Assembly (NCBI GenBank): GCA_017499595.2
Contig: CM039003.1
Coordinates: 124,001 to 188,000 of the forward strand
Origin: Psilocybe cubensis
Lineage: Eukaryota
Length of the DNA: 64,000 bases
Reading direction: 5' to 3'
Numbering within the stretch: position 1 is the stretch's first letter; each line of letters begins with the position of its first letter. Below are positions 11,394 to 28,308 of the stretch, one piece after another. The position numbers and the translations under genes were made by a program. The notes beneath the pieces were generated by a model. It worked only from the letters and a program-made list of their open reading frames with translations, had not been told where the DNA came from and searched no databases.

Positions 11394-11881
11394 CTTATTG
11401 TAAATCACTCCGTATGTTACGTTAATTCATCATTTTTAAATATATCGTAAGGTACGTAATTATACAACTGTCCTATGTGCCACTGCTGTTTCTGCATCCC
11501 CGCCCCCGCTATCCCAGTAGCAGACAAACCCTCCCAGCCCTGCACCTGCGTCGCATTCGCCACAAGCCCATTATTCAAGTCCAAATACGTCCCCGTGCGT
11601 ATGTTCTGCAACGTGTACACATCGCATCTTCCAGGAACAGATTTGATCAACCATTGCTGGTTGAATGTGTCCTCGGTGGTGGATTCAATGTGGAGTTGAC
11701 ATGGTGTGCCATTTGCTGATCTCGCTGTGTGGCCGATGATGATGTCAGTATAGGTCAACGTAGCATTTGGAGTTGGAAATGGGTTGATTAATTTACCTTG
11801 GGATAGGGCCAACATCATGTTGTTCCCATTGAACTGCTTCCTGTTGGAAATTGTATATACGTGGTTTGCGATGAAAGCCAT
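11394..11881 (-). pseudogene. Ricin-B (beta-trefoil) lectin-like gene, probably truncated by the transposon
   Basis: YTISN...QQWLI and YTLQNIRTGTYLDL...QQWHI subdomains; 72-nt GT-AG intron 11796-11725; no signal peptide; third subdomain missing. Confidence 0.65.
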
Positions 11882-13891
11882 ACTGGTTTTGAATCTTCAG
11901 CTAAAGACGTTAAAGTATGAAATGAATGTGCTGTCTTATCTGCTCACTCTCCATACGCACCCTTTATACCATCCAATAAATCCTATCAAAATCGTATTTC
12001 ATGAGCATTCTCGTAGATGAGGGTAAGTTGTCACTCCGTGATCGAAGCTACTGTTGGTGTGGAAGCACGCACCAGTCTTATTTAGACAATTGTGTTATCC
12101 CAAGCTTCCCATAGCGTCGTTTAAACCATCGCGGGTCCAGATACCTTCCAAAATTGTGCCGACAGACGCACCAGGTTATCATCCGTTCGTTTCCATCTTT
12201 TCATATACTTCATAGATGGCATTACTGGGCTGGGGTGTGAGTTATCGGCCCATCTTATAGACTTCAGAGTGTCAATTTGATGGTCGGGTGAGGGATTTGG
12301 CCGATGAAAGAAGGATAGCTTAATCCAAAGAGGTGTGTGCATACCAGAAGGCGGCAAGATGTTGATCAAGCGGTACCTGACGGTCAAAGTACAGGTCTAT
12401 AAGCCAATAGACACTGAAAGGGGTGTACAGGGGGCAGGAGTAGCTGCGTAGTCTGGGTCGATCAGTCTGCCAGTATTCACTGGAGTAAAGCGTAAGGAGG
12501 TAAAGCAGATGAATGGGGAACTTAAGGAACCCTTACCAAAACAGCTTTGAAACGTCCATGAGATCGGGTCATAGCTGGACGCTACAGTGCATGTCAGCCT
12601 CCACATATGGGAAATGAATACACATCAGGCCTAATGATGTAATGGCACAGAGACTGTCTTGTGCAGCCATTTCCTTTAGCTTCTCTTAACGAATGATGAC
12701 ATGGACACGTTGAGGTTTAGAGGTAGAGAAGCGTTCGGTGCAGTTTCCAACATCATTGAAACTCCGCTTTGAGCTCAGTTCCACGGTCATGCGACGGACA
12801 ACAACGATTGAAATATGTTTCGTGTCGTGATAGCTTGACGAATTGCATTATCAACTTGGTACCATGCTTCATATCGCAGTTGAGAAAGAACATTCGTGTA
12901 AATACATATTGGTTAACGCCTAGATAAAATCGTAGTAGCTGTGAATGATTGATTGTATCACCACTCTGTGTGTGAATGCCCGTGGGACTAAAGGGTAACA
13001 GAGCCGAAGCTTATTTATAATTTGCAACTTAGATGTATAGCAGGATACTCGACCGTACACGGCTGAATGCGGGGGCCTTGAGAACTTCTGGGCCTATTTG
13101 TCACATCCAAAATAATGTACTTTTGGAAACCGGATCCTGCTTCCGGTGCTAGACGCAATCAAACGTGGTGGGGTGGGTGCTTTCAGCAGCAGAAAGGAAA
13201 ATCTTCTGAACCAAACGTACACTATTTGTAGGAAACTGGTCATGCTGATGATGAGCGCTGATGACAGGCAACTGATCTGGCTAAGAAGCTGAATATCATC
13301 ACAGTCTATAGAAAAGTCAAGGAGTTCATGACACTTTATGCCATGAATAGAAGCTGATAATCAAATGAGAGGAACATATCAGTCTCACATTTTCCCGACA
13401 TTGATATGAACCTATCGATTTCTTCGTCCCGGTTTCAGCGGTGTCTTGGGGGATATTCGGCCTACATGTATTAAATGCAAATGTGAACCGACCAAACGTC
13501 TACTATCAGGACCTCGCACATGTGATTTCCCCTGCGTAAAATTATCCACCCTCTGAATCCGGATCCACTAACGATTTGATTTGTTAAATTGTTCGGATAC
13601 CAGAAGCTATGGGTATAGGATGACAGGTTACATCAATAGATTCGTTCAATGTTGGCCGAACTATTGATCATGATATTCAGCGCCGATGGCTAGTTTCCTG
13701 AATAGAAAGCCAGCAATTCCTATAATAATGACTAAGAAATGTAGGACATGTTTGTGCTATTAATACGTACTGATAATCAAAGGTCAGGAGCATGTAACAT
13801 TGGAGCTACATATATTGGATCTGTACATTGAAAACAACGGAAAGAGGCCATCATCCCTCCATCCTTCTCACACTGTGGTACTTGTAGTTCC

Positions 13892-15613
13892 ATGAATTCG
13901 ACATCTGCTTTACCCTCACAGGAGTCTCTGAAGACACTGGTCCACACTCTTGAAATAATTCAATTAACTAGAATCCTTAGAGGTGCGCGACCATCCTACC
14001 TTGTTGACTGTCCGCTAGCTTACTGAATCAATCAGTGTCCGCTGTCTGCATTATCATGTACGATTATAGTATGTTGTTGTTGTTGTTTGGTGAATGCAGT
14101 TCCTAATCATTCAAAGTCATCACATTTGACCAAGAGGTAGGCGCAAACATCCTTGATTCCTTCGCTCAGATTAAAATACTGCATACTGACACTATATGAA
14201 TGATCTTAGGTGTCATTCCTATGGGTAAGCAGTCAAAATTCCTGTTTCATTTGATCATTTCATATTTATTTTGCTCAATATGTATGATAGAGTAAACGAC
14301 CCTCACTCATAAAGATACTGTTCTTTTTGGTTAGTGAGATTACGCCTTTCCCTTCAGAAGCGAACAACCGTGAACTGGTAAATGGTAGAATCGCTATTAT
14401 TTTCTCGGGACTTCAATGTTAGCTTTTTCCTTTGCATCTCATGCCATTTACTGATTTATTTTCTAGATATGTCCTTTATGGTAGCTAAAGCATTCTAAGT
14501 AATGAATTTATTCCCCATCGCTGATTAAAAGAATCATCTAGGATTCTTTTTTCCGGCTGTGAATGATAAAGTATGTGTGTTTGCAAAGAAATTGTTGTCG
14601 TTGTTTTCTGACTTCTTGATTCAGTTGTATGTCTTTTTGCACCTAGATGTTGTGAACAAAATTCGCTAACTCTGTTCTATGCTTTTCGTCTCAGTTGTGA
14701 GCCATTTAGTTACAGACCTTCCATGAGTGCAATATCTGACTATATGTCGCAGGCCTAAACTTCATGAGATGGCAGGCATGGACAACATTTCTAGGAACAT
14801 TATTTTCGCAAGGCAAGCATCACCACGTCTACAATGCAGAGAGAATTGATATAGTTTCATATGTTCAGCCATTCTTCAGGTCAGACTATATGCCCTCTAT
14901 TCCAAAAGCCGGAAGCTACTTGCTTTCCTGCTGCCCTTCTACGTTTTATCATCCCTGGGATCTATGTTTGTTGTCCGTCAAACGGTAATACAGCTCTCAG
15001 TCGGTGAGTATTGCTGGTTAACGTTTTCAAATACAATTTCTGATTAATTTCGAGTAAAGATCATAATGCTATGGCAATCCCAATACCAGGAGGACACTTC
15101 TGCGTCGTTGCCCATAGTCCAACATTTATATATGCATTTTGGATACCAGCCTTCGCTTTTGACTGGACGCTCTGCGCACTAGCTATCCGTAGAGGATATT
15201 TGTGTTTCAAAAATTTGAAATCATATGGCCCACAATCCAGCTACACAACGGGTATTCGCATTATGGATATCCTAGTTAGAGACTCTGGTCTTTATTTCAT
15301 TGCGTAAGTCGGAGAGACGCGTCATGACTATTGGGTTATCTCATATTGACCACTTACCAGAATGGCTGTCACATACCTCGTTTGCATGGTTATTTGGATA
15401 GTGGATTTGGTAAGATATCAAAAACTGTGCTTGTGTCGCTGATAGGCCTTCTGTTTCTTGCTAGTGTCGAGTCTGACATTACCTCTCATTTTACAGGAAC
15501 TTTTTGATGCACCAGTAGGGTTCTCAATTGCCATGTCTTCCACTCTTTGCAACCGCCTGGTACTCAGAGTTCACATGGCTTTATCCGAACGTCCTGGTAT
15601 TCCATCGAGTTAA
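13892..15613 (+). CDS. DUF6533 multi-pass (7TM-like) membrane protein, many short exons
   Basis: YDY..TFDQEVSFLW N-terminal motif, ILQVRLYALY, ILVRDSGLYF, CNRLVLRV; includes two 2-nt exons and a GC-AG intron. Confidence 0.85.
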
Positions 15614-15707
15614 AACGGTTTCCACAACGAGTAGACCCTGAAGGACATGGAAATAATATGTACTGGGAGAATCGTGAAATGATATCTTGCTACTTAACTG
15701 AAATCAA

Positions 15708-17717
15708 CTAGTCAGCTTCATTATCAATGTTGCGGACAATCTTCAACATAAATAAATATACAATTCTGACTTGCACCAGCTGTTCAAACACAAACCACCC
15801 TAAGTCCTTTGAATCTTCTGTGGAATGAAAGTAGCCTACGCGCCTAAAGTCTCCCCCCTCAGCAGCAATAACAATTAAACCAACCGCGTACGATTCTTTA
15901 AGGTTCCATCTCACAGGAACAGCCCAAACCTCTTCAACAGATTCGCTTTCCTCGGCACTATCAGGATATGAACATGCGACACAAACCCGTTCTCCTTCTC
16001 GGAAAACAAACAAATCAGGCATCTCCGCCGTAGGATTCCACGTTACCCTGACCAGCGCAGCACGCAACTGCAATACCCCTCCTACTACCCCACCAAATAT
16101 GACCATCTCGCTGGCTAGCATCACACTGCAGTAGACAACCTTACACTCCGAAATACTGTATCTGTCAGTGTCCAGCCTTGAATCGTCTTCCGTCCCTGTA
16201 TTGACATGTCCGTCGACTGCCGCCCACGACCAAGATGGCGCGCGGTACTGCACTGGACGCGGGTGCCTTTTTGCGTAGTTCTTGAGCCAGAGGAGGTCTT
16301 CTACCAGCGTATGCCGCCATATACCGGCGAGGTACTCGCTCCTAGGCCAGACACGTTGGAACTGAGCAGCCACACCCGAAAGGGCTACCAGCTTGTCAGA
16401 AGGCGCGGTCATGTTGCGCTGGGAATAGTCTTCCAGGATATAATTCCATGCGCGTCTGGCTTCATCCATCTCCCGCTGCGAGGGGATACTATCCACCCCA
16501 CCTGTGTAAGTGTTAAAGACGGCCCTGGGCAGCCGCTTTCCACTGACAGATGGACACACGGCGTCTCCGATATTTACTGTTTCTGTCTGACAACAGTACT
16601 GCAATGTATGTGAGGCGTAGATCATAGATCTTGGTGAAAGCATGCGCTCCTGTAGACACCAGGCGCGACTGCTGACAGGCTCCGACAACTCTTCATACTG
16701 TTTCCAGACTGGCGAGAGACAAACGGACCCCAACGTTCGATCCGGACACAAAAACGGCACTCGTGTGTCCCTCTCCACAGTTGAATCTGGTCGGTCTTGC
16801 ATAAACCCTTCGCTGACCCTTCCAGCACTTGCGGCGACGATGGTGAGGTGCGCATCGTGGTAAATCCGTCTCATATCGGAAATCTCGCAGTTTTTATCGG
16901 CCTGAGAGTCCTGAAGAATGCAAAGAGCATCCACCCAGAGGTATCGTAGCCCATAACGATGGGTGGCAATGATAGCGTCTTGGATTGTCTTCGGTAGTTC
17001 CTCGAGATCAAGTTTTTTCATACGCACATCGATGTTCTCGGTTGTAGTGCATGGCTGCGGTTCTCCCCACACGTAACTCAGTGCTACATATTCATCCATC
17101 ATGCCTTTGGTGATGAAAATCCTTGGTGTCATTGGTTTAGCACAGTCAATAACACGGGTTGGAAGCCTGCTTTTCTGCGGCTTTGGGCACCCATGATGAT
17201 AAGTAATGCAATGTGCCATACAGTCTAGTGCTTGCCTATAGCTCTTAGGGGACAACACTCAGCGTACAAGGTCCCTTGCGTTGATATACCGAGCAGCAGC
17301 GTCATCTAAAGATCATCAGTGAGGTAAGCACCCGTAGAAAAAGTCGAACCTGCCCTCTTTAGTATAGGTATAAAACGTCGCACTCGGCCGACCGTTAATC
17401 CCCAGCCTCAAGGTCTTCCGCCCCTTCAGCATCGTACCTGGATTCTCAATCTGCGTGCGGAACCCAACCGTCACACTGAGTTTGGCCTCATCGATAGGGA
17501 TCGCCTCATCCTTCACAGACAAAAGAAGCTTACACCAGGTGCACTCAGCCTCTGCAGAGTTCTGTACGTCTTCCCATGTAGTTGAGTAGGAGGATCCACC
17601 GAGCAGGGTCTGCGATGCCAGAGCCTTTTGAAACGGGATAAAGGAAAAGAGATTGCTTCGGCATGTTTTACACACGATAACTGGGAAATCTCTAGCCTCA
17701 ACCGAGATATCATTCAT
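15708..17717 (-). pseudogene. HET-domain (heterokaryon incompatibility type) protein with in-frame TGA at 17261-17259
   Basis: LPTRVIDC, YVALSYVWG, LPKTIQDAI, YLWVDALCILQD, RAWCLQER, DKLVALSG, YLAGIW, YRAPSWSWA. The splice to DDAAARYINARDLVR hits TGA before VLSPKSY. Confidence 0.8.
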
Positions 17718-18099
17718 GGCTAGAAACAGAGATTATCTGGAGGCAGCACGGTCAAGAAGGGCAGTGTCAAGCAGGTGGAAAGTCAAGGAAAAGCACCGAA
17801 GTATGCAAGGCTCTCCCAGTTGGGAATAGAAATGCATGCAGTCGGTTATTTTAAGTTCTAAACCAATATATATTTGTACACTTAATTGACGTCTTAACAC
17901 GACCTTAAAGGTCTCAAAAAGGGCTTCAAAAGCGATACCAAACGTAAAGGGAACACTGATACTGATGCACTGCGACCAGATTAAACCGATGCGCTAACAA
18001 CGCGCCATACATCCATTCAGCGTATACAAGGGACTGTAAATACATAGCACCGTATCCATCTTCACAAATCGTATCCCGTACTGTCTCCGCTGACTGTAA

Positions 18100-19761
18100 T
18101 TATGACCATTGGCTCCTCGCTCGCAGGCTATATATGCCTGTTTCCCTGGGGGAGACGGCGGAACGTAAGTTGATTAGTATCCTGCTTCCTAGTATAGCCG
18201 ATACGGCCGTCAGATAGGGGATGGGAGCATCCAGCATTGGCTAGACGAAGCGTCAGCTGAATGACATTTTTTGAGTCAATCTAGTAGAGTATTTTCTCAC
18301 TGGGGGATAGTAGTTCCACCACAGTATACTCATAATATACGCCATCGCAATGCTAAACACACATACGTCATAATCAGCAAATAATATCCTCTTTTCATCA
18401 CCAAAATGGATTTAAACACCTACACAATGAAGTATAGGACAGAGTCCCGCACCATGACCTCCATGAGTGACTTACCCTTAATAAAAATCGAGACATTCGA
18501 ACCAATTTTACTACCCTTCACCGCCTTCCGGATGGCCATTGCACACAGAACGCTCTCAAACAACAGGGGCGGGATCCAAAACTTTGCATAGAAGCGAGTT
18601 AAGCTGCTTTCCTCCGGGGCACAGTACGTCCCGCCAGGGATATTTACTACTTGTACTGCCATGAGATTTTTGTTAGTGACATGGCGGTATTTCTGGATGC
18701 AATGGAGCAGCAAAATTGGTTTGCGTACTCACCTACGACCGAAGTTGTAGCTACAAACCATATTTCAACTGCTGTTGTGGCGGCGAATCCTACTAGCAAT
18801 CCTATGAGAACCATATGATTGAAGGAGTACAGTGCATAAATCCGCATTTGCAGGATCACTACAGGCAGTCAGAATTGCTTGGTTAGCAAATTATTTGAGA
18901 CGCTTCAAAGTTGGAGAGATGTAAGAACACGCCTTGATTAATTACAGGGGTTAACATGATCGTGACCACTTGCCAGAGGGAGAATTGGTTGCCTAGGTGG
19001 GTCAATGGATATTTGTGTAAATTACACAATGATTAAATGGATTCGGAATACTCACAGCTAGGGACAACATCAAGCATTATTTAGCATTCAGCTAATTATT
19101 TCAATCAAGGAGAGTCCTTTCTTACAACTAATAACACATAAATGTTAATATTTACTGAGCGTGAGATAGAAATATACCTGCTGGGACACCTTTAGGGAGA
19201 GATATGCTAACAGGAACCAATCGTAAGCTCATTTAAGGGGTCCAGAACTGTTAGGCGCACCATAAAGCTCTACTCTGCAGAGAAAAAATGAAATTTAAAC
19301 TTTATTTGAGGCTAGGCAGAACGACTTGCAATGCTGTTGCCAAAACGTAGTAACGATTTTGCCATTTAAGTAGCCTGTGAGATAGTCGAAGTATAGAATA
19401 ATCCAACATTCAAACCCACCACGAAGAACATTATTTTTCCAAAGGTAAGTTTTCCTGGCTGTCCGAACACAAGCTCAGATTAGACCTATATTTCATCGAG
19501 AAGGAAAGAGCATAGGTAGCACCCAAAACAAAGATATTTCGTTGTCCAAAGTGATGACTACGAATTTGGAGATCAGAACGTTCACAAAATAGTATATCGA
19601 AAGTGAACTTTACCATAGTCGTAGAGATACCACACGATAGGAGCCACTAGAAGTAATAGTTGAGTGAATGCCTCCCAGACAAGGAATTGGAATGACATAC
19701 ATCGTGCGTATTCAATTTGTTTGATTACACGAAGGAGGCTGATTAATTGTCCTGAATCCAT
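18100..19761 (-). CDS. DUF6533 multi-pass membrane protein, paralog of 13892-15613
   Basis: YLYDY..TLDNEISLFW, ILQMRIYALY, VMVRDSVLYF, SRILINLR; same 14-nt, 29-nt, 2-nt, 2-nt exon series as the paralog. Confidence 0.85.
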
Positions 19762-20569: not shown

Positions 20570-21452
20570 CACTGCGGGCGCCGACCGCTGTAAGTTAAAC
20601 ATACAGCAGAAAACTTACATGTCTTATGTAAGTTTCGCTGTAAATTCAACATACAGCACACGTGTATGAAAAACAAACACTCGACAAAGACATATTGTGT
20701 TTGGTGGCTGTATGCCGACCAAACACAATTGCTGTAAGTAGACTGTAAATAAAATAAACACCTAAATTACACAAATTGTGTTTGTCCGGTGTTAGTAAAA
20801 CATACACATTTTCTGTAAATGACACAAACAGCACTTGCTGTAAGTAAAATTTACATACAAAGAACACTATTTGTGTATGTCAGACTTACACCATTAAATG
20901 AATTGAAAAACTTGTGTAAGTATAACATACACAAATTGTTTTCTTTGTGTGTAATTTCTACTTACAGTAAGTGCTGTTTGTATTACTTACAGACACCGCT
21001 GGCGCTCATACATATTTTCAAAGAAAATAAGACCCAGTAATTATGTTTCCTACATTTTTTTGACGTATTTTATTGGAATATAGGCTTCGGGCTTCCCTAA
21101 TTGGGTAACCCCGGACTCTATATACGAGAAAAATATGTCAAAAACCAACAAGAAACATAATTACCGATACATATTTTTCTATCAAATATGTATCAGCGCC
21201 AGCAGTGAGAAAATGTGTATGTTTTACTAACACCGGACAAACACAATTTGTGTAATTTAGGTGTTTATTCTATTTACAGTCTACTTACAGCAATTGTGTT
21301 TGGTCGGCATACAGCCACCAAACACAATATGTCTTTGTTAAATTTTTGTTTTCCCGACACATATGCTGTAAGTTGAACATACACCTAAACTTACATAAGA
21401 CATGTAAGTTTACTGCTGTATGTTTAACTTACAGCAGTCGGCGCCCGCAGTG
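20570..21452. mobile_element. Non-autonomous CACTA/CMC-like fold-back MITE (CACTG termini, 3-bp TSD AGA)
   Basis: Starts CACTGCGGGCGCCGAC, ends GTCGGCGCCCGCAGTG; AGA at 20567-20569 and 21453-21455; arms complementary along most of the length. Confidence 0.92.
20994..21207. mobile_element. 214-bp CACTG-type MITE nested in the right arm of the previous MITE (TSD AGA)
   Basis: CACCGCTGGCGCTCATACATATTT ... AAATATGTATCAGCGCCAGCAGTG; AGA on both sides; removing it restores the host arm's symmetry. Confidence 0.88.
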
Positions 21453-24538: not shown

Positions 24539-25832
24539 ATGTCTGCACCCCGCTATTCCGTTAGCGTCCAAGAGAGTATCATCAGTGCTAATATCAACAG
24601 CTCTATCCTTCTCACTTTGCTGATGGGTCAGTCTTTTTTACCTAGTTAATTTGAAATATTTCTGATAGGCGCTGTGGTTAGGTGTGTACACAATGGTGTA
24701 CGGCGGAACGGTATACGTGTATCGTATGTCCGTTTATTCACACTCACTAAACCCGGACATTAACATATAAAAACAGTCAATGAAAAGCCCTTGAATACCA
24801 GTAGACGGGTGGTTCTAAGCGCAATTTCTGCCCTTTACATTCTTGCCGTTCTAGATTTCGTTTTGGAATGGTACTTTTTGAACGTAACATTAATGGTTCA
24901 TGGAGATACGCGCGAAGACATTTTCAGAGCAACGCTGATGGATGTTCCGTTGTGGCTTGCGATTATCTTTGAATGCATACAAGACTTTATGCTTGTCATA
25001 TCAGATGGGCTATTGGTATGTTGTTTTATTAGAATGCGTACATGGTGGGTCTAATGTAGATCAACAGATATGGAGATGTTATCACGTATGGGGCCGATCG
25101 CTCAAGGTTATTGCCCTTCCATCACTGCTATGGCTAGCAGAGATTGGTCCGTGAGCTGCTGATTCTTGCGATATATCCAACTAATACAAACATTTACAGG
25201 CCTATCTATCACCAACACAGTGCTAGACGGACTGACAACAAATTTCGCACTTCAGATCGATATTCCAATATGCCTCATATTCACATCGCTTGCAACCACT
25301 ATAGCCTGCACGGTGCTTATAGGCTTCAGAATATACACTGGTGTCGATCACAGCTGGCGGTCAAAGACGGTATATAGCCGGGTGCTGGTGACAATTGTGG
25401 AGTCTTCTGCGGTATATGCGGTCGTTCTCCTGTTCCTTGCGTTGACTTTGGTGGTCCCCCCATTGTACACCTTGCCTCTGTATGCAATTGGATACTACGT
25501 TCAGTCAACCCTTATTGTCGTTTCAGTACGTTCGCAGCATAATTCTTGTCTTATTCTATATAATCCTTACTTGTCGTCACCAGGGAATGGCTCCAACGGT
25601 CATGGTTGCACGACTTTCGATTACGAACAGCAAAGCGGCTTCATCTGCAACCGTTACACACATCACCGGACTGAACTTCGGCTTGAATCATGGAAAAGAC
25701 AGTTTTCAAAGTCAACGTTCCATCAGCGGAGACAACACCTATTCCATTCACAGACAAGCCTCTGTAAATGATAAAAATGCCGACATAAAGGAGTCTCATA
25801 GAACTCAACAAAGTGATCAGAGTCCTGTTTAA
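24539..25832 (+). CDS. 7TM (GPCR-like) membrane protein, multi-exon
   Basis: NSSILLTLLMGVYT, ISDGLLIWRCYHVWG, IVESSAVY, GMAPTVMVARL; several hydrophobic helices. Confidence 0.8.
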
Positions 25833-27050
25833 ATCATGCTTATTTAAAGTAAATAGAACGGTATTTAACGATTTAGTATACGCCCTATATGTACATTATG
25901 AAGACCTAATGCGCGGATATTTTTGTTTGCATACATCGTTCCCCCCCTCCGCACGTCCTCATACCGACGAGCAAGAAGACATGCTACATCAGGCTCGCAA
26001 GGCAGCAAAGGTGCGTCACCTCAATTACTCCCTTCTGGATCCAAAACACATACCATATATCCAGCATATATGCTGACCGTGCCGTCAGCCACTTCCGTGT
26101 ACCCCTACTGTTGGGTTTACAAAAATCCCAGCTTTGATCACAACAACCGGACATGTTAATGAGATGTTGGAAGAGCAAGAAGACAGAGGCACTAATATCA
26201 GCATCTAGTCGATTCTTCAAGCAGATATATACTCAAAAACAAGTGAACTACACATTCTACTTTTTTTGCGAACACACACAACCAACGTGACGTACGTTGA
26301 TTCATTCATCTCTTCCTCAGTTCATCAACGCTAGTTGTCACGAATCTGATCCCCTCGATACAGAGGTAGCAGAACAGAACTGATACTCACACTTATGACA
26401 GCAGTCGTGTTGGTGAAAGACTGCCGGTTGGAAATATCCACTACGGATCAGTTTATTTGGCCATCAACTTGTCAATGCTCTGAATCCAATCCCACCAAGT
26501 ATTTTGTGATATCTGTTGAAGAGATTTTCAAGAGGTTTTCAACGGCTTACGCCTCTGGAACTTGATAAATTTCCTTGTAGAACGCCCTTCATTCAATTAA
26601 GTGTTATAATTTCCTTGGGGGGAATGTCTTTTATTTATTTAGGAGACAAATGAGCCTGCAAATTCTATGAATTTAGCCGTTTCAGGGGGACAGGATGGGC
26701 AGCTCATGATGATCAACAGCAGTAAACGTCGCTGAGCTTCGATTCTAACGTACAGACAATCTAACTATCACAAATGTAAGATATTTGGGCTGCTGGCCGA
26801 GACGGCTACAAGTGAAAGCCTGAGCACTGCTCAGATTCCCAGCTCAATATGGCTACAGTAATGATATAATACACCTCATTATTGAAATAACAATCATTGC
26901 CAACAGTGTGTCATTGTGAAATGACAGTTGGTTGAACCCAGGACCTTTACGCGCTCCACACTCTACAGGTTTAGCAATGCTTTTAGATGAACCCTCAAAT
27001 ATAAACATGGTCTCATCCTATCTTTCAGATGTTACCGACCCACTTCAGAG

Positions 27051-28308
27051 ATGGCCAGCCAAGGAGATTTGTCGATACCAGCCAACATCGAAAACCACAT
27101 ATTATACGCCAGTTTAAACAGCTCTATGCTTGGAAACCTCCTGATTGGTATTTTCCCGAATTCGAAAGCGGTATTGAGCATCATGATTAATATAACGAAC
27201 TCTGCAGGGATATATACAGTCACCTATGGTGGCACTGTGTACCTTCTCTGTAACCTCTTTAGCTTGTGTTAAAAACTTTACGATTTACCTAGGATATTTA
27301 CAGTCTTCAAGAGCACATCTACGGTCTCTCGGCAGGTGGTTTTAGCTGCAATATCACTCCTTTATCTTCTCTCTATTACCGATGCTATTTTGCAATGGTA
27401 CTTCCTCAATGTATCATTCATCGTTCATGGAGACTCGAGGGATTCAATCTTTTGGGAGTCTCTTAGTGCACCGCTGTGGTTATCCACCGTTAACAGCGCA
27501 CTGTTAAGCGCATCGTTTATCGTCTCAGATGGACTCCTCGTATGTACCCAGTCTAGATACACAGCTAGCTTTATTAAACCCGCCGACTGACAGATTTGGA
27601 GATGTTATCATGTCTGGGGAAGGCGCTTAAAAGTCATCGCATTTCCCATAATCCTTTACGGAGCAGAAATTGGTGTGTTTCTCTTTCTGACAAGGCCATT
27701 CAACGGATTCTCAAGCTGCCTACAGCTCTATCAGTCGCAGATTTAGTCCTCCAAGCAACCATTCCTTTGATTAGCAGCCCAGAGGAGGCAAGCATAGAGA
27801 ATAAAGTTGCGACTGCCCAGCAATTCACATCACTCGGTACCACGGCCACAACCACATTCCTCATCGGATGGATGTTTTTCTCTGCGTTCAAAAACGGAGC
27901 CCTGCATTCGGAATCGCAATACACTCGGATTCTAGTGATCATTGTGGAGTCCTCTGCGATATACTCTGTGATTCTGACATTATCTGCTGTGGCTGGTGTG
28001 ATACCGCAGACCTACACCATAGAGTCTCCGCTATCCCAGTGGGACTACTATGTAACAACTTTACTGATGAATGTATCAGTAAGTATTTTTTCTGATCGCA
28101 ATTGGACGCTACTTATTATCTGAATCAATGCACGATAAACCAGGGTCTCGCTCCGACTGTCATGGTCGCAAGACTTGCTCTTAGGAGTTCCAAGAATGCA
28201 AATGCTTCTGATACACGTTCCGATGACGATATGCGTTTTCGGAATGCTCAAAGTCTAACTGACACAGAGAAAGGGCTCAGAGGGGTCATTACATTGGACA
28301 TTGTTTAA
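27051..28308 (+). CDS. 7TM (GPCR-like) membrane protein, tandem paralog
   Basis: LNSSMLGNLLIGIYT, VSDGLLIWRCYHVWG, IVESSAIY, GLAPTVMVARL; introns at positions matching the previous gene. Confidence 0.8.

Follow-up and report, generated by a model that had tools for sequence, protein, structure and literature searches.

Twin two-nucleotide coding exons in receptor-like genes of one Agaricomycete DUF6533 subfamily

A receptor-like gene of Psilocybe cubensis, gene 2, is interrupted by two adjacent coding exons of only two nucleotides each, and this twin layout (2+2) is real, ancient, and spread through one whole subfamily of DUF6533 genes. The pair is likely a constitutive, ancestral and ordinarily spliced unit, kept by the need to hold the reading frame and to supply a cysteine, with the split itself probably neutral. 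The stretch analysed, hereafter the window, comprises 64,000 nucleotides of contig CM039003.1 (assembly GCA_017499595.2, positions 124,001 to 188,000), and the features of its two receptor genes are collected in Table 1.

The coding exons of gene 2 measure 61, 33, 35, 39, 29, 14, 29, 2, 2, 60, 126, 232, 52 and 141 nt, and exons 8 and 9 satisfy the definition of a microexon (internal, at most 15 nt, canonical splice sites). The initial annotation had placed a TT microexon at 19127-19126 and a CT microexon at 19057-19056; both are present with canonical splice sites, in the contexts tag-TT-gtaaga and tag-CT-gtgagt, and the splicing model returns the proposed reading VSQQ-F-C-NQF. The preceding exons of 14 and 29 nt were said to match those of gene 1, and their sizes are indeed the same in both genes. 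The range proposed for the whole feature, 18993..19176, contains these elements but falls one base short, as the first intron begins at 19177. The proteins of genes 1 and 2 are 34.7% identical, and a spliced aligner given the other gene's protein as query, with eight residues at the site masked, chose 2+2 in each gene. Skipping either gene 2 microexon shifts the frame and brings a stop after 98 aa; skipping both shifts it as well, with a stop after 93 aa. No RNA of gene 1 or gene 2 was found, the RNA-like run X1 covering neither; gene 2 is presumably expressed.

Table 1. Features of the two receptor-like genes in the window (nt, positions of the window)
Feature	Coordinates	Strand	Description
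Gene 1, paralog	13892..15620	+	15 coding exons, 292 aa; end approximate, stop just inside
Gene 1 microexon 1, TT	14625..14626	+	From splicing model
Gene 1 microexon 2, TT	14695..14696	+	From splicing model
Gene 2	18100..19761	-	14 coding exons, 284 aa; predicted DUF6533-type 7TM protein
Intron-4 acceptor CAA, not YAG	19359..19361	-	Mutation, assembly error or non-canonical site
14-nt exon	19261..19274	-	Upstream of microexon pair
29-nt exon	19178..19206	-	Upstream of microexon pair; first extracellular loop
Intron A	19128..19177	-	50 nt, GT-AG, phase 0
Microexon 1 (exon 8), TT	19126..19127	-	Bases 1-2 of Phe81 codon
Intron B	19058..19125	-	Between microexons; 68 nt, GT-AG, phase 2
Microexon 2 (exon 9), CT	19056..19057	-	Base 3 of Phe81 and base 1 of Cys82
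Intron C	18993..19055	-	63 nt, GT-AG, phase 1; splits Cys82 codon
60-nt exon	18933..18992	-	Completes Cys82, begins TM3
126-nt exon	18733..18858	-	Invariant Arg107 (TM3 end) and TM4
232-nt exon	18424..18655	-	Invariant second-loop Cys155, likely disulfide partner

Splice signals lead to the same layout when protein and frame information are withheld. For gene 2 the 2+2 path then comes out ahead with a score of -5.5; a single long intron scores -15.5, and the strongest in-frame alternative -17.6. With flanking exons fixed and the same information withheld, a canonical 2+2 path exists in 42 of 42 paralog intervals of at least 140 nt and is the top-scoring path in 25; among shuffled intervals any canonical 2+2 path appears in 177 of 4200 and is the best in 0 of 4200. 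One could nevertheless hold that the parse is wrong, that the region is a single long intron or contains a larger in-frame exon, and that the 2-nt exons are chance splice-like words. The splice-only score does favour another path in 17 of the 42 loci, and raw pattern counts do not rise above control, either for the bare 2+2 pattern genome-wide (13 matches against 10, no enrichment) or for another genome-wide twin 2-nt pattern (187 against 456). These genome-wide counts alone carry no weight, and 12 of the 13 bare-pattern matches, compared by hand, each precede one of the 48 homolog exons by 0.41-0.49 kb. Against a wrong parse stand the frameshift that a single long intron or a single microexon would produce and, more directly, the homologous transcripts and natural fusions described next, with which this reading becomes barely credible and is, for the homologs, largely refuted. 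Six other twin 2-nt motifs in the genome look genuine (G000:C5:922338, C7:160994, C5:2498525, C3:3635712, C3:3777425 and C3:3798831); some lie near weak family matches, and the two without such a neighbour may be part of other genes.

Among metagenome homologs, L095 is a partly spliced contig that keeps introns A to C with TT and TT microexons, and L098 is its intronless twin, in which exactly four T stand between the flanking exons. The two align over 989 nt with 2 mismatches, neither at the junction, so that the four bases can be read directly from the comparison. Within the 183-nt interval of L095 there are just two AG-TT-GT sites, and no single exon of 1, 3 or 4 nt is possible. Six further intronless clusters besides L098 show the homologs' microexon bases included, and the intronless L089 and L101 read TT-CT-G, the gene 2 type. 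Intronless contigs (1.2-1.7 kb) were taken as transcripts from their size and their loss of every intron; read in this way, the homologous sequences indicate that the four microexon bases are included in spliced transcripts. Natural fusions tell the same story, as AGCT, TT-extended and CT-extended exons match the 2+2 prediction exactly: L070 reads AGCT and groups in the tree with AG+CT genes, L082 has its first microexon fused upstream, and L118 and L119 have the second fused downstream.

The claim that the architecture is real beyond two genes is thus borne out by the spliced homolog contigs and, further, by its spread. In the genome searched (46.6 Mb, 48 paralog loci), profile spliced alignment with nine columns masked gives 2+2 at 43 of 48 loci, within a near-constant exon series of 33, 20, 15, 39, 29, 14, 29, 2, 2 and 60 nt. 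The five exceptions are L070 with one 4-nt exon, L082 with 28+2, and three loci without a recoverable 5' part, one of which, L058, yet contains a 2+2 path in the splice-only test. L083 is not doubly fused: the profile pass reads AT+AT there. About 20 of the 48 paralog matches are clustered within 0.4 Mb (G000:C9, 2.65-3.06 Mb). Some paralogs of gene 2 are 100% identical to public proteins that bear the label Psilocybe cubensis. A metagenome scan of contigs without taxonomy yielded 75 homolog loci in 49 sequence clusters, of which 34 have 2+2 (shuffle control 56 of 6800), 7 are intronless, 2 are too short and 6 show no path at threshold; among these six, L118 is a fusion and three have 2-nt candidates by eye. 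The comparison of gene structures across homologs that the initial annotation had called for finds the 2+2 layout at most paralog loci and in most metagenome clusters. A distant expanded clade (L122-L156) apparently carries an extra 5-nt exon ahead of the pair, in an uncertain parse.

How far the layout reaches, and from how many origins, can be stated more narrowly than at first proposed. The term family-wide holds for one DUF6533 subfamily; the best 30 Pfam matches in the genome have other layouts, in low-scoring models that are all the subfamily profile yields there. Named homologs span Agaricales, Polyporales, Hymenochaetales and others. A quick tree, which took in 29 of the 75 metagenome loci, places genes 1 and 2 in separate clades, with 2+2 as the general state and the fused forms nested within it; conservation in a diverged paralog is accordingly upheld, but it points to one ancestor rather than the two origins that the word independent would suggest. 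Near-duplicates (L046, L075 and L086) were excluded from the paralog counts, the donor comparison and the tree, and L058, L068 and L071 were also excluded from the tree and the intron table. When gene 2 is compared with gene 1 and with its nearest paralog, the interiors of introns A, B and C show no greater similarity than shuffled sequence does, and hence the microexons have been kept over saturating divergence.

The four bases make up the codon of a variable residue and open the codon of an invariant Cys. Among 40 non-duplicate paralogs the first microexon is TT in 26, AG in 6, CT in 3, AT in 3, TA in 1 and AC in 1, and the second is CT in 19, TT in 16 and AT in 5, its last base being T in 40 of 40. 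The encoded dipeptide is F-C in 26, S-C in 5, L-C in 3, I-C in 3, and Y-C, T-C and R-C in one each. The Phe-Cys reported for gene 2 is present there, and Cys is kept in 40/40, but Phe is not fixed. At one metagenome locus with 2+2, L160, the bases encode Leu-Val and no Cys. In gene 1, gene 2 and L094 alike, the split Cys precedes the invariant TM3 Arg by 25 residues, and the gene 2 residues C82, R107 and C155 are invariant in the homolog alignment as C86, R111 and C161. Likewise, Cys lies at the expected distance in 47 of 51 short-contig ORFs, a set overlapping the intronless contigs used as transcript evidence, and the other 4 do not span the site. A single-exon homolog search for longer proteins found none.

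An alignment-based model of the intronless homolog L094 reaches a pLDDT of 91.6. It consists of seven long helices, the third (TM3) spanning 83-115, and has a hairpin, 149-164, that holds the second invariant Cys. The structural matches of this model are GPCRs, the best being Ste2 (Z 17.1, rmsd 3.7, 252 residues aligned), and the predicted topology of the subfamily is thus GPCR-like with seven helices. The split Cys, the TM3 Arg and the second-loop Cys are what we take to be the class A arrangement of C3.25, R3.50 and loop 2, and by analogy with class A GPCRs a disulfide probably links the TM3 Cys to the one in extracellular loop 2. All 6 of the full-length homologs scanned pass the curated PF20151 (DUF6533) cut-off; gene 1 gives a sub-threshold match, and two gene 2 fragments, in which the domain is cut into short exons, give none, so that the assignment of gene 2 to DUF6533 is one of homology.

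Selection acts on the coding content of the microexons. The architecture had been called selected, which the evidence bears out for that content and for working splice sites but not for the split: intact genes have lost it no less often than they have lost introns at other positions. In a table of 64 genes, including 22 of the 75 metagenome loci, one gene lacks intron A, one lacks intron B and one lacks intron C, against 0 to 7 genes for other positions, some of these counts being alignment noise, and fused genes keep open frames. L082, L070 and L118 have each lost one cassette intron and retained the neighbour 2 nt away; L082 is one codon short, and L070 arose in a clade whose first microexon, AG, duplicates the two bases that end the intron. 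The model of intron loss favoured for fungi, in which mature cDNA recombines with the gene (PMC8476143), would remove all three introns together, and genomic deletion or partly spliced cDNA therefore fits better, although three events are too few to conclude. Donors after microexons have +5G more often than others (77/80 versus 344/423), but the excess is gone when donors without -1G are compared (71/74 versus 182/197, p 0.41; 21 of the 75 metagenome loci entered this comparison), and the idea of unusually strong microexon donors was rejected. No control elements or unusual splice sites were found in the three introns of two gene pairs set against shuffles or in the -1G-controlled donors. Intron B exceeds the other introns in length (median 65 versus 58 nt, p 6e-5), a hint that the pair may be under some constraint of its own.

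It might then be asked whether the triple-intron cassette is a selected control point at which slow or conditional splicing sets the amount of receptor. This we regard as quite improbable, as we do the mechanisms proposed for it, namely detained introns or skipping into frameshift and decay. Any skip would lead to an early stop, intron B is longer than average, and plant microexon introns are more often detained (PMC8831610). L095 keeps five introns in the region of TM2 and loop 1, among them the three at the microexons, with all others removed, a pattern that in this one assembled contig fits slow splicing and may be regulatory; two of the retained introns, however, do not flank microexons. 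Each cassette intron has been lost in an intact gene as readily as introns elsewhere, splice sites are ordinary after control, and intron interiors resemble one another no more than shuffles do. A bolder proposal, that of a family-wide splicing checkpoint on a structural Cys codon that gates the maturation of dozens of orphan GPCR-like receptors, is unlikely; if true, three introns within four coding bases would slow or gate receptor maturation in mushrooms.

The preferred account, that of an ordinarily spliced ancestral pair, is simpler. The twin exons would go back to the common ancestor of a single Agaricomycete DUF6533 subfamily, and each short intron is probably recognised singly by ordinary intron definition. 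Intron definition with stepwise removal is established for short-intron fungi, and were these introns likewise removed one at a time, exon length would hardly matter. The pair would supply a variable residue and the first base of the Cys atop TM3, itself probably bonded to the second extracellular loop. The microexons would be kept for three reasons: every skip shifts the reading frame, the protein needs the Cys, and introns are seldom lost precisely.

Gene 2 itself is a weaker witness than the family because of its CAA intron-4 acceptor, although the family result is unaffected. The acceptor is AG in 41 other loci, CAA being unique to gene 2 among 42, and gene 2 also has a weak donor, GCGTGT at 18927-18932 (minus strand), where its nearest paralog has GTGTGT. 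Both features would suit a damaged allele or young pseudogene whose microexons are relics within a real family layout, a reading that is possible if on balance doubtful and that is compatible with the best explanation for the family. On the other side, the 284-aa frame is otherwise open with all invariant residues kept, the branch length of gene 2 (0.43) is close to that of its sister (0.40), the CAA could be an assembly error, and an in-frame path bypasses it by pairing a different, weak splice donor with an acceptor 16 nt upstream. No gene 2 indel appears among the 12 listed of 15 in another strain, and position 19359 is absent among the 40 listed of 224 differences in the other strain.

Several further features of the window may be recorded. 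Between the two receptor genes lies a HET-domain gene (PF06985, E 1e-30; 15708-17732, minus strand), partly covered by run X1 with a 48-nt skip at 17305-17354 whose ends, read on the minus strand, are GC-AG. About 0.8 kb upstream of gene 2, an 883-nt element (20570-21452) with 245-nt terminal inverted repeats at 93% has high depth in DNA runs and is missing at this site in runs X4 and X5; it is a polymorphic MITE-like insertion. Runs X3-X5 behave as DNA from another strain, and at gene 1 one contig of run X5 joins both ends of 14139-15358 with 1218 nt skipped (short side 30 letters). An ORF at 11417-11896 (minus strand) has a ricin-type beta-trefoil lectin domain (PF14200, E 7e-12), and 24764-28123 (plus strand) holds a tandem pair of similar multi-exon membrane-protein genes, with no Pfam match in the two fragments scanned.

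The implications begin with annotation. By a pattern-based count, 20 of 69 genome-annotated homologs show the Cys at the right spacing; 18 are without Cys, 20 have it at other spacings (a few of these being pattern offsets), and 11 do not span the site. Many named-homolog annotations read Val at the Cys site, which is what read-through of the GT donor would be expected to give, and a public Psilocybe protein reads through introns here. The microexon pair thus explains the poor annotation of a large receptor-like family, and corrected gene models bring back the Cys that is likely to form the disulfide, to the benefit of structural and ligand studies. More broadly, the fungal spliceosome routinely handles 2-nt exons that stand side by side, and does so in dozens of genes of a single genome. 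The twin exons thereby set a minimum that models of exon size and of splicing order have to accommodate, and the single-intron losses could serve to discriminate between mechanisms of intron loss.

No description of a conserved tandem 2+2 pair was found in the literature searched, most subscription journals lying outside its coverage. What appears new here is accordingly the conserved pair, 2-nt exons and DUF6533 microexon enrichment being already known in Coprinopsis. The long-read annotation of Coprinopsis cinerea counts 57 exons of 2 nt in 50 genes, and DUF6533 heads its microexon-enriched InterPro families (Fig. S2B), so that 2-nt exons and the DUF6533 enrichment are common to both (PMC12230235); the accessible text of that account gives no gene-level tandem 2+2 pair, position or conservation, and its gene models may contain the pair. 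Cryptococcus has 1-nt exons (PMC3990503) and Phanerochaete has P450 microexons (PMC1184071), and they share with the present genes very short exons between short introns in basidiomycetes; a conserved tandem 2-nt pair is not described in the accessible parts of these accounts. The peptide receptor Gpe1 has been linked to DUF6533, with a conserved TM3 Arg named R3.50, and such basidiomycete GPCR-like proteins resemble the present subfamily in their 7TM fold and TM3 Arg; gene structure and the TM3 Cys are not treated in section 10 of that account (PMC13652807). In plants, APC11 and VPS55 have 1-nt exons, and Peptidase M1 has neighbouring exons of 5 and 12 nt (PMC8831610, PMC11096116). Like the plant microexons described there, the mushroom pair is, on the preferred reading, constitutive, and it is frame-critical, widely misannotated, and sometimes fused by intron loss. 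Unlike them, both of its members are 2 nt long, it belongs to a family that numbers about 48 paralogs in one genome, and single introns have been lost beside a neighbour kept only 2 nt away.
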